Below are positions 1,626 to 43,711 of a stretch of 64,000 nt of DNA, piece after piece. The stretch's first letter is position 1, and the number at the start of each line of letters is the position of its first letter. A model generated the notes under the pieces. The model had not been told where the DNA came from and made no database searches. It was given only the letters and a program-made list of their open reading frames with translations. Origin of the DNA: a virus; the IMG/VR virus record IMGVR_UViG_3300046328_000321, positions 49,369 through 113,368 of that record. One strand, written 5' to 3'. Position numbers and translations under genes: made by a program.

Positions 1626-1631
1626 ATCCCC

Positions 1632-1668
1632 TTTGTAAAAATACATAGTCATATATACTATACTTGAC
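1632..1668 (+). promoter_or_regulatory. Phage bipartite promoter motif (TGTAAA ... TATACTATACTTGA) upstream of the ncRNA unit
   Basis: Same motif and spacing recurs about 16 times upstream of + strand genes in this window. Confidence 0.65.
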
Positions 1669-1716
1669 AATTGGGTCAATTTTTAATTGATACGGTTATT
1701 AAATGAGTGAAAACTT

Positions 1717-1790
1717 AGTCGTAATTCTCTGATGAGTTCTGCGACTTTAAATAAAAGAACGAAACACCGTCCACAAGACGGTGTAAGAAA
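1717..1790 (+). ncRNA. Type I hammerhead ribozyme
   Basis: Core CTGATGA 1729-1735; stem II GTTCT/AGAAC; GAAA 1761-1764; stem III CACCGTC/GACGGTG; GTA cleavage triplet ending 1785; stem I TTCT/AGAA; loop II GCGACT can pair with AGTCGT 1717-1722. Confidence 0.9.
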
Positions 1791-2112
1791 TGTGTTAGCT
1801 TACGGTGATTACACACCATAAATCTTATTGGCTTATGGTCTAGCTGATGTTCTAACCAAACGTCAAACCGTGTGTCTATAGTTAGTTTCGCGAAAGAATA
1901 CCCTTGGTCGGGATCTTAGCGCCGCTTCTATAGAAAGTTGTAAACTCTGGACTTGATCGCTCTAGAGAGCAGCCTATCATCCATTCGTATCTAATATGAG
2001 TGGATTTTAGAGTGCTATAAGATCTTACCGACTATCAATCTACAGAACAATGTCAGCAGTTTATTCTGCGAAAATGACTTTGGTTCTTGATTGATAGTCG
2101 GTATTTTTTTTT
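1786..2112 (+). ncRNA. Candidate structured non-coding RNA released by hammerhead cleavage
   Basis: No ORF >=60 aa; multiple stems; ends in perfect 15-bp stem 2026-2040/2089-2103 plus T-run. Confidence 0.6.
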
Positions 2113-2130
2113 TTCTTTGGAAATATAAAT

Positions 2131-13547: not shown

Positions 13548-13640
13548 CCCTTTCTAAAAAGACACAATCATATAAACTATAATTGGTAATCTATCTCGGA
13601 TAATTTTTATTCCGAGATATTATCTAATGAAGAACAGATT

Positions 13641-14191: not shown

Positions 14192-14521
14192 GGCCCGCTG
14201 ATGAAATTGGTAGACATAACGGAAAACCAGAAAGTTAGTCCGCCTTTACTAGTAATAGTAAAGTAAACTGTGGGTGAACTCAGGAGAATCTAAAGCGCAA
14301 GCCATGATAATCGTGAGCCAAGCTAGAAGTACACTTCTAGAAGGTGCAGAGACTACTGGAAAGGTAAAGTCCTTTTAATAACCAGCTAGAGCGCCCACTA
14401 CCGTAATAGAATTTCTATCGGTAAAGAGATAGTCCATGTCCATTGGAAACTTTGGAACACATGCTTAAAATCCGTCGCTTCCGAAAGGAGCATTCCGGTT
14501 CGATTCCGGAGCGGGCCACCA
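14192..14521 (+). tRNA. trnL: tRNA-Leu(UAA) interrupted by a group I intron
   Basis: Joining 14192-14223 to 14464-14521 gives a cloverleaf: acceptor GGCCCGC/GCGGGCC, anticodon arm ACGGA-CTTAAAA-TCCGT, long variable arm, TTCGATT loop, CCA. Confidence 0.88.
14224..14463 (+). ncRNA. ORF-less group I intron (IC3/trnL-like core), 240 nt
   Basis: P AACTCAGGAGAA, Q AATCGTGAGCC, R GTGCAGAGACT, S AAGAGATAGTCC; P3 GTGGGTG/CGCCCAC; terminal G at 14463. Confidence 0.85.
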
Positions 14522-14639: not shown

Positions 14640-14716
14640 AGGTCTGTAACTCAATAGGATAGAGTAACTCCCTTCTAAGGAGTAAGTTGCTGGTTCGAAT
14701 CCAGTCAGACCTACCA
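14640..14716 (+). tRNA. trnR: tRNA-Arg(UCU)
   Basis: AGGTCTG/CAGACCT acceptor, ACTCC-CTTCTAA-GGAGT arm, TTCGAAT loop, CCA. Confidence 0.93.
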
Positions 14717-18151: not shown

Positions 18152-18319
18152 AAAATCAATAGAGGATATTGAAAGTACCTATATAGCCTGTAAGGTTTAC
18201 AGAATGTTAATCAACAGCTATTTTAATATTTAGTGAGATTGATCAGAATACCAAGGTCACCCCTGGTATTCTGATTAAATATTTCTTTTTGTAAAAAATC
18301 TCAATAACATATAATATAC

Positions 18320-18727
18320 TTGACAATTCTGTCAAATCCATATAAGGAAAGTATCATGTCCGATGATGTTAAAACAGTAACAGAGTTGAAAGAAAAGATT
18401 GACGCATTCTTGATGTTGGATATACCAACGATCAAGAATGAAAATACTGGAATTGTTTGGTTCAAAGAAAAGAAAGAAACAATCGGATACGCAGTTACTC
18501 CTGTGGATTCTGAATATTCCATAGCTGATGATTGTCCTACCACAGCTTTGTCTTATGAGCTTTCTGGATATTTGATTACCTCTGAAGGACAAGCTTGGTT
18601 TAGAAGACATACCATTCTAAGAACTATTTCTAACGATAATTATAAAATTATCAGAGGAGAATATGATTCTTTCGGCTGGTTGTCAGGTGTGTTGATAACA
18701 CCCAAAGGACGAGTTAGTTTCGGTTAA
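18320..18727 (+). CDS. Hypothetical protein
   Basis: Promoter motif and AAGGA RBS; C-terminal DSFGWL.G..TPKG.V.FG motif. Confidence 0.6.
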   Translation: MTILSNPYKESIMSDDVKTVTELKEKIDAFLMLDIPTIKNENTGIVWFKEKKETIGYAVTPVDSEYSIADDCPTTALSYELSGYLITSEGQAWFRRHTILRTISNDNYKIIRGEYDSFGWLSGVLITPKGRVSFG

Positions 18728-28548: not shown

Positions 28549-31380
28549 ATGCCTGTCATACAGGAAATCATTCAGTTTGATGATATGTTTCATAAACTAC
28601 ATCACACACCTACTCTTATTAACCACATAGCTTGCGCCACATTGGAAGATAGGGAGAAGGTAAAAGAAATTCTTACCACTCATCTTAACAGTGATCAGAT
28701 AAGTTTAGTACCTTCATGTCAATGCGGAGCTACTAAAGGTGAATATTCCAAGAGTATGGTTTGTCCCGTCTGTAATACAGAAGTAAAAACTTCTGTGACT
28801 ACAGATATCGAACCAGTAGTCTGGCTGAAGCAACCAGAGAGTGTGGATAAGTTGATCAGTCCTATCTTTCTGATGATGTTAATCAAAAGGTTTACCAAAT
28901 CAGGATTCTCAGTGATCGAATGGTTATGTAATACAAATTACTCTTCGACATCTAAACCTCCTGATAAAGTATTAGCTAAAATCCAGACATGTGGGATTGA
29001 ACGAGGTTATAACAACTTCGTTAGGAATTTTGATCCTATTATGGATTTGTTGTTTTCATTCATTGAGTTTGCTCCTAAAACTCAAAAGTTTGAAATGAAA
29101 CAAGAAGACAAAATAGATCATTTACAACAACTAATCAGAGATCACAGAAACGCGATCTTTAGTGAGTATTTACCCATCCCAAATAAGATCATTTTGATCT
29201 TTGACACCCAGCCATTAGGGACTTATACTGATCCTTCAGTAATGAAAGCTGTGGATGCTATTAACACAATGGTGTCCATTGATCGAGATTTCTATGATCA
29301 GAGTTCAAAAACCAAACAGAACCGTACGATCAAAGCTTTGATGTTACTTTGTGATTTTTATAACGATACCTTATTGTTAATGGCACATAAGCATGGTCAT
29401 TTCCGTAAGCACATGTTTGGTAGTAGAACCAATTTTTCTTTCCGAGCTGTAATCACATCGATTACAGCCGGTAAGAATTATGATGAGATCGAAGCTCCAT
29501 GGTGTATGGCAATCACAGCATTCCGTATTCATTTGTTGAATAAACTTTTGAAATACGGTATGGGTCATAACGAAGGGTTAGGATTTTTGTATAAACATAC
29601 GTACAAACACCATTCTCTTCTGGAAAGATTCATGCAGGAGATGATTGATGAGACCCCAATGAAAGGTATTTTCATTTGTTTGCAACGCAATTAACTATTT
29701 AGGTTGCCTTTATCAGTAATGGTAAAGTAAAATTCTCCTTAATTGACGGGAACATCCTGCTAAAAACTTGTACACCAAACTACAATAGAAATATATGTAG
29801 CGGCCAAGGTAACTACTTGGGTATGGTAAAAGAAACAAGTCTGGGATAATCCGCAGCCGAACTCTTAACCAGAAATGGAAAGAGATGGGTTCAACGACTA
29901 GTCGAAAGACGTAACTCTTAGCAAGAGTGAAACAGGAGACCCCTTTTGTATAAAAGGGTGAAGATATAGTCTGCTCTCGTATGAATAATACGAGCGGGTG
30001 TCGTAGCACACCGGGTAAAGAGAGTAAGCTGTTTAAGCTGAGCGACTTTACTGGACAATGGCCGAGTTTGTTACAAGGGTCAGCTCAACGAGTGAAAATC
30101 ACAAAGTTCAAAACTAACCCTATGGACTTGACTATAGGGATGCACATCTTAACAGTGCGTGCTAATCATTATTGGCATTTAACCAGGTAACTGGTTAAAG
30201 AATCTCTTCGAATTGCTGGAAACTCCTTAGAGTCTCATTACCACTGCGAGCTGTAAAGCAAAGCCACGGTTTAAAAAGTATGAGAATTGGACAATCAGCA
30301 GCGAAACTTCCTACGGGAAGTACGTTCAACGATCATCGGAGTTACGCCCGAGTAGAACCTCAAGCGAGGAAGAAGTGGAGAGCACCCTACTATTTATGAG
30401 GGTGAAGATATGATCTGTTCCTGTATGAAAATACAGGCGGGTGTCTTAGCACACCGAGTAAAGAGAGTAAGCTATTATAGCTGAGCGGCTTTACTGGACA
30501 ATAAGCCAAATGCTGATCAAAAGGTCCTCTTAACTTGCGAAGGTTAAGATGTATTTCCTGAATTGCTGGGAACTCTCGTTAGACTGTTGAACTAAAGCGG
30601 AGTGTGAAAACACAAACGTAAATGTTTGAAAATCAGCAGGTAGAGACAATCAGCAGCTAAGACGCTAAAGACAGTTGTGAAACTGGCTATGCGTAAAGTT
30701 CAACGACTATCCGGTAGCACGGAGTAGACCCATGAGGGTCAAAGTAGGAAACGTCTCTAGGAAGACGGTGATATAGTCTGCTCTCACATGAGAATGTGAG
30801 CGGGTGTCAAAGCACACCGGGTGAGGAATCGAAAGATGGCTTCACTGGACAAAAGGTTTGATGGTAGAGTATTGCCATCTCTAAACATTCTTAACTGCGG
30901 GAAACTCCTTAGAGCTTTGTTGACCAACCTGTGGTAGAAATACACACAGCGGCTGAACTAACTATTCAGATATGGTAAAACTAACAAAGATTGGACAATC
31001 CGCACCGAAGCTCCTAACTAAGTATATTAACATATACTTACATGGAGTGTGGCCAACGACTATCCCGTAAGGGAGTACACTCAAGCGAGTGGAAACAGAA
31101 TGTACCGAAAGGTAAAGATATAGTCTAATCAGATATGAAAGTATCTGGATCCTTAAGCAAGATCGATGAGTAGTAGCGTACTCAGGTTGGTGCTAGAGAG
31201 TTATGGTTTATGGATGCTCTCAACGTATCCATAGCTCTTGATCAGAAAATGTCAGATATGTGGTATCCACTTTCACCGGAGTTCAACATCTTCCAAATGA
31301 CAAAACCATTTCAAGTATCGGGAAACATAGCGATCCCTAAACCTAACATCGCTACCATTTCATCTTGGTTGGAAAACTAG
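28549..31380 (+). CDS. nvRNAP beta' catalytic subunit (phiKZ gp55-like), spliced, ~477 aa; exons 28549-29691, 30062-30163, 30506-30517, 30857-30865, 31213-31380
   Basis: N-terminal zinc ribbon, RKH.FG.R..FS.RAVI; splicing restores QRN-PSL and PNAD-FDG-D in frame. Confidence 0.93.
29692..30061 (+). ncRNA. Group I intron 1 of nvRNAP beta' (370 nt, ORF-less)
   Basis: P1 GCAAT/GTTGC with U.G; P AATTGACGGGAA, Q AATCCGCAGC, R GTTCAACGACTA, S AAGATATAGTCT; terminal G. Confidence 0.92.
30164..30505 (+). ncRNA. Group I intron 2 of nvRNAP beta' (342 nt, ORF-less)
   Basis: P1 GTGCT/GGCAT; AATTGCTGGAA, AATCAGCAGC, GTTCAACGATCA, AAGATATGATCT; terminal G. Confidence 0.92.
30518..30856 (+). ncRNA. Group I intron 3 of nvRNAP beta' (339 nt, ORF-less)
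   Basis: Short P1 GAT/GTC; AATTGCTGGGA, AATCAGCAGC, GTTCAACGACTA, GATATAGTCT; terminal G. Confidence 0.9.
30866..31212 (+). ncRNA. Group I intron 4 of nvRNAP beta' (347 nt, ORF-less)
   Basis: P1 GATGGT/GCCATC; P10 AGAGTATT/GATGCTCT; AACTGCGGGA, AATCCGCACC, CAACGACTA, AAGATATAGTCT; terminal G. Confidence 0.92.
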
Positions 31381-41242: not shown

Positions 41243-43711
41243 ACTGAAACTTCAATATGTGGGTATACAAGGACTTAATTCTTACTGTATGCATAATTCA
41301 TCATCACGAGCTGTGATGTTTTCTTCTCACATTGGACAACGTCTGGTAATTGAAGGAGCTCAACAGAAACTTGTACAAACTGGGCTTGAACAAGAATTTG
41401 GTAAATATACGTTCAATGTCAAGATGCCTGAGAATGGTCGTATTGTTGCTATCTTAGACAGGTATCCTCGTGGTGTAGGTAGTAAATCTCTTAATTTCAA
41501 TCCAGAGACCTATGTCTTCTTTGAACGTGAAGACAACAAGCAAGTAGATTATATTCTCATCCCGTACAAAGCTCAGTTCCATCAGAATTTTGGTTTTAAG
41601 TACAAGATGAATAAGAAAAATATCGGAAAGCTTCAGCCAGGTGCTTATATTGCAAAAGATACTATTTTTGCAGACAGTCCTGCTGTTTCTGACAATGGTA
41701 ATTTCATGTTTGGTATCAATGCCAACATTGCCCTGATGTCCATTCCCTCAGTGGCTGAAGATGGCATTATGATCTCCAGAGACTTTCTACCTAAGTTAAA
41801 GTTCAAGATTTATGATACTCGACAAGTCAACTTTGGATCTAAACAATTTCCATTGAACCTTTATGGTACTTTGGATGAAGTAAAACCATTTCCTGAGATC
41901 GGAGATAAGATTCGAGAAGATGGTATTTTGATGGCTTTTAGAGACTTTAACACAGCTCTGTCTCCTGTTGAAATGTCTAAGATGGATTTAATGGAAGTAG
42001 ATCACACTTTTGATGAATGTGTATATGTACGAGGTGGTGTGGGTACTGTGGTTGACATTAAGATTACCAGAAACAACTCACCTATTAAGAACATGCCTGT
42101 GGAAATGTCATGTTATCTGAACCGTTACTGGGAAGCCAATCAAGCTTTTTATAAGAAAGTTATTGATTTAGAAGCCGGTCTGCGTAAAGATAACCGAATG
42201 AAATTTGGAACCACTGATATTTTAACAACATCAAAGTTTGATAAATTAGTTTATGAGGCTATGGTGCATACTAACCATAACTTCAATCAGTTTAAACAAC
42301 CTCTTCAACTCCAATCACGTAAGTCTACTGTAGACGAATACCAGATACAATTTACTATTGAATACACCATTGAACCCTGTGAAGGATTCAAATTGACTGA
42401 TAATCACGGTTTTTACTAGCCGCTTTTGACAGAGATGTCAATCGATCATTTTCCTAATTGCGGGGAACCACCTAAAGCTTCATTGACCAACTTAGTTACG
42501 AAAGTAAGTTAAGGGCTACGCTAACTACGTAGGTATGGTAAAACTAATGAAGATATATGGGCAATCCGCACCGAAGCTCCTAACTAAGTATATTAACATA
42601 TACTTACATGGAGTGTGGCCAACGACTATCCCGTAAGGGAGTAGGCTCATGAGAGTCGAAATGGAAAGCGTCCTACTGTTGAACAGAGGATGAAGATATA
42701 GTCTGTTCCTACATGAAAGTGTGGGTGGGTGTCACAGCACACCGGGTGAAGAATCGAAAGACGGCTTCACTGGACAAAAAGGGAAAAGGTGTTATTTGTA
42801 AAGTAGAAGAACCTGAGAACATGCCTGTCGATGAAAATGGCAACCGTGCCGACATCGTCATGGATGCAGCTTCTACTATCTCACGTATGAACTTAGGCAG
42901 GCTTTACGAGCAACACATGGCATCTGCCTTGCGCGACGTTACTCAAAATGTTCGCATGTTGTTTGGATTTGAACGATTGAAACCAACATCCATTAAAGCT
43001 GAGAATTTGCTAGACAGTTTTCCAATTCAAAAGATCGAAGAAGCTCATCAGTACGTGTTAGGTTTCTATAACCTTATTTCAGAAAAGCAATATAACTTTT
43101 ATTCTAAACTGACAGATCCTAAGCAAATTGCCGAGCATATCTGTGATATCATATCCGATCACGTTTATGCATATATTCCTATTGATAAACAGATCAGTAG
43201 TAAAGATATCGTGAAACGCATCGAGAATTCCATATACAAACCCGTTTATGGAAAAATTACCTATCGAGGTAATTCTGGTGAGGTCGTGCTTACTGAACGA
43301 AATGTGCGCATTGCTCCTTTATACATGATGTTATTGGAAAAAATCGCTGATGATTGGACAGCTGTAGCCACTGGTAATCTTCAGCTACATGGTTTACTGG
43401 CTCAGGTCAACAGACGTGAAAAGCATTCAAGACCTCATAGGAACACTCCTGTTCGCACCATCGGTGAAACAGAGGGACGTTTATTTGTAGGTTATTGTGG
43501 AAGAGAAGCGGTCGCTGAGATGTTGGATCGTTCAGGTAATCCTCTTGTACAAAGACACATGACTAGGAACATTCTTGAAGCCAATCGTCCAACAAATATC
43601 AATGAGATTGTAGATCGTAACTTGGTTAACTACGGTAATACCAAGTCTGTACAGATCATCAACCATATGTTTACTTGTATGGGTTTTAAAACCAAATACG
43701 TTCCAGAATGA
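41229..43711 (+). CDS. nvRNAP beta subunit (phiKZ gp71-73-like), spliced, ~703 aa; exons 41229-42410 and 42782-43711
   Basis: SSSRAVM, EDG; splicing restores KLTDNHG-GKGVIC; SRMNLG and GETE motifs. Confidence 0.92.
42411..42781 (+). ncRNA. Group I intron of nvRNAP beta (371 nt, ORF-less)
   Basis: P1 CGGT/GCCG with U.G; AATTGCGGGGAA, AATCCGCACC, CAACGACTA, AAGATATAGTCT; terminal G. Confidence 0.92.

Follow-up and report, generated by a model that had tools for sequence, protein, structure and literature searches.

In the window considered in the current analysis (a stretch of 64,000 nucleotides), a DprA-like gene (1023-1625, + strand) is followed by convergent minus-strand genes (from position 2174), and an RNA unit is placed between them. 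No plus-strand ORF of at least 30 residues has been found between the DprA-like gene and the gene from 2174. The small ORFs at the RNA locus differ in the related phages and are not conserved, in agreement with a preliminary description in which the unit was regarded as ORF-less. The features of the unit are listed below.

1629..1666, + strand, bipartite phage promoter-like motif with a CCCTTTGTAAAA box, a spacer of ~10 nt and a TCATATATACTATACTTG box; recognised by its recurrence, putative promoter
1664..1679, + strand, inverted repeat TTGAC-N6-GTCAA in the leader, read from the sequence
1717..1785, + strand, type I hammerhead with pseudoknot; predicted cut between 1785 and 1786, after A1785
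1717-1722/1741-1746, + strand, hammerhead pseudoknot of 6 bp between the 5' strand and loop II (AGUCGU:GCGACU)
1725-1728/1786-1789, + strand, hammerhead stem I, open
1729-1735, + strand, hammerhead core CUGAUGA
1736-40/1756-60, + strand, hammerhead stem II, 5 bp with a 15-nt loop
1761-64, + strand, hammerhead GAAA
1764-71/1777-84, + strand, hammerhead stem III, 8 bp
1786..2022, + strand, conserved non-coding RNA core (~237 nt), predicted 5'-OH start after cleavage
1802-06/1867-71, + strand, P2 (domain 1802..1871), one compensatory pair
1815-21/1833-39, + strand, P2a, variable hairpin inside P2; a hairpin in all three sequences, letters differ
1846-51/1859-64, + strand, P2b, two compensatory pairs
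1852-58, + strand, invariant P2b loop CUAACCA
1875-81/1928-34, + strand, P3 base helix (domain 1875..1934), one compensatory and two one-sided changes
1901-1912, + strand, P3 apex CCC-UUGGUC-GGG; the middle of P3 is variable
1935-41, + strand, signature AA-GUUGU (module 1935..1973)
1945-51/1961-67, + strand, P4 hairpin, 9-nt loop with the palindrome GAUC; one compensatory and two one-sided changes
1969-73, + strand, signature GCAGC, which can pair with GUUGU
1974-76/2008-10, + strand, P5 lower helix CUA/UAG, invariant (region 1974..2016)
1979-90/1994-2005, + strand, P5 apical hairpin, 12 bp, variable; sequence lineage-specific, pairing always kept
2012-16, + strand, conserved GUGCU after P5
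2026-40/2089-2103, + strand, 3' hairpin with an exact 15-bp stem around an inner hairpin
2104-2114, + strand, U11 run; intrinsic-terminator-like end (2026..2114)

The source record is a 113-kb IMG/VR virus contig with a completeness estimate of 43%. A chimallin homologue (PF25677, 104 bits) is encoded on the contig, as is the divergent DNA polymerase of family B known from phiKZ-like phages, here with at most 40% identity to those of cultured phages. Based on these two genes the source virus is a jumbo phage of the nucleus-forming type, and the chimallin gene supports the earlier assignment to jumbo phages. The contig also carries nine group I introns above the Rfam cut-off (RF00028, 62-88 bits). 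Four of them immediately follow the ORF 28549-29694 and are situated head to tail at window positions 29691-31147 with gaps of 41-160 nt, an unusually dense array; others are found at window positions 14208-14456 and 42401-42725 and at contig positions 11590-12262 and 15897-16186.

The product of the DprA-like gene has 200 residues with the motifs GNRDTP and SGGADGAD and is represented by homologues in over 1400 phage records of GenBank. In each of the three related phages this gene is a neighbour of the RNA unit. No partner protein conserved beside the RNA gene has been found. Relatives of the DprA-like protein with 60-83% identity are present in metagenomes, and the matches listed in a metagenome scan with this protein include a relative at 57% identity. 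Two IMG/VR phages, referred to here as G001 and G002, were reached by way of this protein and their full records have been compared by BLAST. Both encode homologues of the RNA that are about 69% identical (G001:119229-119474 and G002:46779-47066), situated ~650 nt behind a cluster of tRNA genes, HNH genes and group I introns that is homologous to the cluster at 13.6-15.4 kb of the window. The RNA gene of the relatives lies in an ORF-free stretch of 1.3 kb. The rest of this stretch in G002 (L004 6600-7200 and 7550-7910) has no homologue in the contig analysed here and no Rfam match, and may hold further unclassified RNAs.

The preliminary description had placed a promoter motif ahead of the ribozyme, and this is borne out as a recurrent element. 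The consensus TCAYATAWACTnnAnTTG, seen here at 1649-1666, is matched 10 times in the window (1649, 13568, 18305, 18747, 18970, 40693, 48632, 57512, 58040 and 63662) against an expected 1.7. All the 10 sites are intergenic, lie on the plus strand and have a TTTnTAAA box ~10 nt upstream. One copy of the motif immediately precedes the tRNA cluster at 13548. The motif also precedes the hammerhead in G001 and G002, and it is found in another relative, G006, as well. The bipartite motif is probably the consensus promoter for one of the RNA polymerases that the phage itself encodes. The inverted repeat at 1664-1679 falls within ~45 nt that are missing from the relatives and may serve as an operator or form a hairpin in the leader; a second TTGAC-N6-GTCAA copy is found at 18319-18334, again directly after the promoter motif.

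Candidate hammerhead ribozyme

The segment 1717..1785, previously referred to as a hammerhead, has a complete CUGAUGA...GAAA core, an A1764-U1784 pair (A15.1-U16.1) and a residue other than G, A1785, before the cut. Three helices surround the core; loops close stems II and III, while stem I is open. A scripted search of the whole 113-kb contig has identified no other strong candidate. The core is identical in the hammerheads of G001 and G002, and the helices differ from those of the relatives by compensatory pairs, two each in stem I, stem III and the pseudoknot and one in stem II. The pseudoknot is AGUCGU:GCGACU here and AGCCUU:AAGGCU in the relatives, with both sides changed and the pairing kept. 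The identification as a hammerhead is thus supported by its complete core, by its uniqueness in the contig and by the covariation of its stems and pseudoknot.

Unlike members of the Rfam family RF00163, this hammerhead receives no match with the RF00163 model in the window at E <= 10, and a run on the whole contig likewise gives none; the hammerhead of a relative scores 16.1 bits, below the gathering cut-off of 34 bits. The 15-nt loop II and the 8-bp stem III probably lower the score. Pseudoknots of this kind between stem I and loop II are common among hammerheads and are required for fast cleavage (Perreault et al. 2011, PMC3088659). The same work reported hammerheads in intergenic regions of phages (PMC3088659). 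The candidate resembles these type I hammerheads in its complete core, open stem I, A at the cleavage position, 6-bp pseudoknot and intergenic location, and differs from them in that it would lead a dedicated non-coding RNA gene and not separate mRNAs. No paper linking hammerheads with Chimalliviridae was found in the literature.

Folded RNA core

The RNA 1786-2112 (327 nt) folds at -106.7 kcal/mol (z = -7.3), and none of 100 shuffled sequences is as stable, which agrees with its earlier portrayal as densely paired. The three RNA sequences fold alike when folded individually. The letters of P2a, of the central part of P3 and of the P5 tip vary among them, but a hairpin forms at each of these places in all three. 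Over the 30 pairs of the core that can be scored by column, 97.8% of the cells pair, compared with 29-48% when the partners are slid by 1-3 columns. Changes on both sides are seen in four core pairs, a number reached by 4 of 500 shuffles; this covariation derives from three sequences of two lineages, and its statistics are thin. The search for homologues and covariation proposed in the preliminary description has thus yielded two relatives in which the hammerhead, P2, P2b, P3 and P4 covary.

Positions 1904-08 of the P3 loop and 1855-59 of the P2b loop are complementary, a candidate loop-loop contact. The GCAGC segment has two possible partners, GUUGU or, as AGCA (1968-71), the conserved UGCU at 2013-16, a conformational choice that is distinct from the switch proposed earlier. 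That switch, a competition of TGGTCGG (1905-11) for CCGACTA (2028-34), is possible in the window, but as a two-state arrangement it is not conserved in the relatives. The long-range stem 1911-22/2012-25 likewise forms in the window and is missing from the relatives, which support local P3 and P5 hairpins instead, and the TGTTAGCT/AGCTGATG helix is present in the window but has no counterpart in the two relatives. All three have been ruled out as conserved features by the relatives. Of the other pairings noted before, CCATAA/TTATGG is present and corresponds to P2a. ACGGT/ACCGT is a real and covarying pairing that forms an ordinary nested helix and not a pseudoknot.

At the 3' end, the perfect 15-bp terminal stem and T-run were described exactly. 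The hairpin at 2026-2114 cannot be aligned in G001 and G002, where three other hairpins occupy that position, and conservation ends near 2022. Judged from this comparison, the 3' hairpin with its U11 run is a lineage-specific terminator. The ~320-nt RNA of the preliminary description is therefore present as a folded unit, but only ~237 nt (1786 to ~2022) are conserved and the remainder is the lineage-specific terminator.

For hammerheads located between genes of phages, a role in dividing long transcripts into units has been proposed (PMC3088659). The element at the present locus could by analogy act in cis on transcript ends, the hammerhead trimming the 3' end of an upstream mRNA or tRNA and the fold serving merely as a protective structure or terminator. 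It would suit such a role that many of the pseudoknotted type I hammerheads returned by the IMG/VR scan described in the next section directly follow a tRNA 3' end. At this locus, however, the ribozyme is separated from the upstream gene by a promoter motif of the unit's own, and in G001 and G002 the motif nearly abuts the hammerhead, leaving little upstream to process. The invariant loops and junctions together with the covarying helices over 237 nt exceed the needs of a protective hairpin, and the terminator is the part that is not conserved. An end-processing element is accordingly considered quite unlikely, and the arrangement is better described by a separate gene for a structured RNA.

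Comparison with Rfam 15, which includes GOLLD, ROOL, 6S, RNase P, tmRNA, SRP and riboswitches, has been run at the gathering level and at E <= 10 and has revealed only chance-level matches; these have E >= 0.02, are far below the cut-offs and lie on flanking hairpins. The relatives and Erwinia phage RAY (see below) likewise give nothing credible with Rfam. ARAGORN identifies only a tRNA-Arg at 14640 and nothing at the RNA locus or the homologous loci. The group I intron model RF00028 finds nothing at E <= 10 when applied to 1500-2300, nor does it mark the locus in a run on the whole contig. The statement that the RNA is not a tRNA, tmRNA, 6S RNA or intron is upheld by these searches, and the RNA continues to be an unclassified one, a strong Rfam match having been sought with negative outcome. 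The conserved RNA apparently represents an undescribed family.

The silence of RF00028 also bears on a possible origin from a mobile RNA element that has decayed or been domesticated, such as a group I intron remnant or the template RNA of a retroelement. The contig with its nine group I introns, the HNH genes and introns within its tRNA cluster (window 13.6-15.4 kb) and the differing distances of the cassette to its neighbours among the relatives provide a setting for such an origin. Against this, the model that scores 62-88 bits on the nine introns is negative here even at E <= 10; an interrupted host gene or exon is not apparent, and no paralogue of the RNA has been found elsewhere in the contig. 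The conservation is moreover purifying and structure-preserving, so that derivation from a mobile element is very improbable compared with a functional RNA gene.

The covariance model R1 recovers just three sequences, namely this RNA and those of G001 and G002. The conserved RNA blocks used as exact patterns in IMG/VR and GTDB genomes return only G001 and G002 and a chance match, L099. BLAST of the locus and of a 12-kb flank against GenBank phages gives no match.

Hammerhead-led RNAs in other phage lineages

A scan of IMG/VR with the pattern CTGATGAG-N8-14-TTAAA-N4-12-CGAAAC returned 87 stretches. About 15 of these contain pseudoknotted type I hammerheads and about 38 belong to an unrelated group of type III hammerheads. 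The latter group (L139, L144 and ~36 other IMG/VR loci on contigs of 200-400 kb) has a nearly identical hammerhead with a stem I hairpin GUUAGG...CCUAAC, loop II ACGAGGUUAAACUCAA and a stem III of 9 bp, situated upstream of an A+T-rich hairpin and T-run. The pseudoknotted hammerheads of RAY, L185, L196, L161/L166 and L135/L204 have a loop II of the form GAC-N-UUAAA and precede RNAs of 220-250 nt. None of the pseudoknotted hammerheads at L185, L196, L161, L166, L170, L160 and L135 reaches the Rfam gathering score.

A common signature has been identified in five independent lineages, represented by the present phage, L161/L166, RAY with L176, L185 and L196. It consists of AAGUUG, located +119 to +151 from the cut and followed at a distance of 28-56 nt by GCAGCC, with which it can pair; in the present RNA they are found at +150 (1935) and +184 (1969), respectively. 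In 2.84 Mb of fetched DNA, AAGTTG-N20-65-GCAGCC occurs 18 times, 17 of them behind pseudoknotted hammerheads (redundant loci counted) and one unrelated. The pairs that extend the GUUGY:GCAGC helix covary, being C-G in L185, A-U in RAY and A-U and G-C in L135; the support for the AAGUUG/GCAGCC pairing comes from this extension alone, because both motifs are invariant.

The L185 RNA shares with the present RNA the colinear anchors UUACGGU, AACCGU (P2), AAGUUGU, GCAGCC and GUGCU. Its hairpin loops are UGGUA and UACCA, compared with ACCAA and UUGGU here, so that loop-loop complementarity is kept; since the letters are exchanged between the hairpins, the loop-loop pair is conserved with its strands swapped. 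Long-range complements centred on ACC:GGU, differing in sequence, are seen in L161, L196 and RAY. The P4 hairpin with a GAUC-palindrome loop is near-identical in L135 and has a covarying stem in RAY. The modules are ordered otherwise in RAY and L135, in which the GAUC-loop hairpin precedes AAGUUG and a large domain lies within the helix.

The L185 contig (232 kb) encodes chimallin, as does the L204 phage; the L196 phage (70.8 kb) does not. The L196 RNA (~248 nt) lies between the hammerhead and the next tRNA within a tRNA array and is comparable in length to the conserved core described here. In RAY (KU886224) the hammerhead-led RNA locus spans 168,306-168,660. The pseudoknotted hammerhead has its core at 168,306 and a stem I ACUCC/GGAGU, its stem III carries an insert of ~95 nt, and ~220 nt of RNA and then a U-run follow downstream. 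The locus falls in an unannotated gap of 1.27 kb (167,689-168,956) that contains a tRNA-like T-arm remnant, the hammerhead and the ~220-nt RNA, elements that are absent from the GenBank annotation and from Rfam detection.

The link among these lineages is made by the motifs, their order and helices compared by hand, the sequences being too diverged for BLAST or R1. The highest score of R1 on the other lineages, 13.7 bits (E = 0.07), falls on the P4 hairpin of L135, and L185 gives at best 5.9 bits; nothing significant is obtained on RAY, AgentSmith, FLC9, RP12, G006 and 78 hammerhead loci. It is thus on short motifs and manual comparison that the wider family is based. The L185 unit gives no match by BLAST against GenBank phages. 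The composite motif also arises by chance in G+C-richer genomes, and its matches in phiKZ, PhiPA3, OBP and RP12 were set aside as chance occurrences inside genes. It is absent from 201phi2-1 and EL, and in RisingSun it lies in a non-coding stretch with no canonical hammerhead within 400 nt. A 15-nt match to the hammerhead core in G006 was rejected as it lies in a coding region, and so was a candidate in FLC9 with no plausible stem II. With these limits, the present RNA appears to belong to a hammerhead-led family of ~220-250-nt RNAs that occurs in several lineages of phages, mostly within or next to tRNA arrays.

A location in or beside a tRNA array is seen in G001 and G002, L196, L166 and RAY; in the window, 11.5 kb separate the RNA gene from the tRNA cluster, which nevertheless has the same promoter motif. 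Since most lineages place the RNA in or beside such arrays, the 240-nt body could be a catalytic or tRNA-handling RNA, a reduced RNase-P-like or tRNA-3'-end-binding one, that processes or protects the phage tRNAs. RNase P and T-boxes pair with the CCA ends of tRNAs. The compact fold with its loop-loop tertiary contact resembles ribozymes and riboswitches, and, as a lead, the invariant AAGU.../...GCC(U) helix, which follows a P3-like hairpin, is reminiscent of helix P4 of RNase P RNA, and the ACC:GGU contact of the pairing with tRNA CCA ends. RNase P, T-box and other ribozyme families are absent even at E <= 10, however, other short likenesses to E. coli M1 RNA are not colinear, and no catalytic core can be named. 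This assignment is quite unlikely. A broader form of the proposal, in which the body is a new RNA machine tied to tRNA biology, acting as a small ribozyme or tRNA-end binder through the AA-GUUGY/GCAGC-C helix or by self-assembly through the GAUC loop, is unlikely, if slightly less so; if true, the phages would co-express the RNA with their tRNAs during infection, so that these tRNAs are processed, protected or employed as decoys.

Proposed role of the RNA and comparison with known phage RNAs

Taken together, the sequence comparisons make it likely that the locus is a self-contained non-coding RNA gene, with a phage promoter, a 5' end made by a hammerhead, a stable RNA whose action would depend on its fold, and a terminator. 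The recurrent motif and the covarying helices of the hammerhead and the RNA lend support to the preliminary description of a dedicated RNA gene with a ribozyme-made 5' end.

A phage polymerase would start the transcript at the promoter motif, of the type that probably also drives the tRNA cluster of the phage. The leader is predicted to fold into the pseudoknot-stabilised type I hammerhead and to cut itself after A1785, removing the triphosphate-bearing leader (~30 nt in the relatives and ~100 nt here) and providing the RNA with a precise 5'-OH end free of triphosphate. The 15-bp hairpin and U-run would end the transcript. The compact body would then comprise P2 with its two inner hairpins, P3, the contact between the P2b and P3 loops, the AA-GUUGU/GCAGC-C helix around P4, and P5. 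The RNA presumably accumulates like the tRNAs that are co-encoded with its relatives. The invariant loops and junctions, the loop-loop contact and the variable hairpin tips argue for action through shape; the stable RNA, made together with tRNAs, would bind a protein or RNA partner by its three-dimensional fold and would be neither antisense nor coding. A dimer formed through the palindromic P4 loop is predicted as possible.

Structured non-coding RNAs of phages and prophages have been described before. GOLLD and ROOL, large ornate RNAs that occur in bacteria as well as in phages and prophages, have been found by cryo-EM to form RNA-only multimers (PMC5737381; bioRxiv 10.1101/2024.12.08.627333). 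Their function is unexplained. GOLLD and ROOL genes often lie beside tRNA genes. The present RNA is similarly a phage-borne structured RNA that is associated with tRNAs in the relatives, and its palindromic P4 loop hints at self-association. Unlike GOLLD and ROOL (~600-800 nt), it is ~240 nt in length and led by a hammerhead, shares no sequence or model match with them, and its multimerisation is hypothetical.

The species 1 and 2 RNAs of T4 and the small RNAs of T5 are small stable RNAs within phage tRNA clusters with unexplained function, and are matured from tRNA transcripts by host RNases. Compared with these, the present RNA has a built-in candidate ribozyme, and a relation in sequence is not expected. 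The Rfam hammerhead models systematically miss this group of pseudoknotted phage hammerheads.

Stable RNAs of unexplained purpose have long been known in the tRNA clusters of phages, and the RNAs described here add to them a compact and well-delimited family with a predicted maturation ribozyme of its own. The family is carried by nucleus-forming jumbo phages, including the cultured Erwinia phage RAY, through which the RNA is open to mapping, deletion, probing and pull-down in a laboratory phage-host pair.
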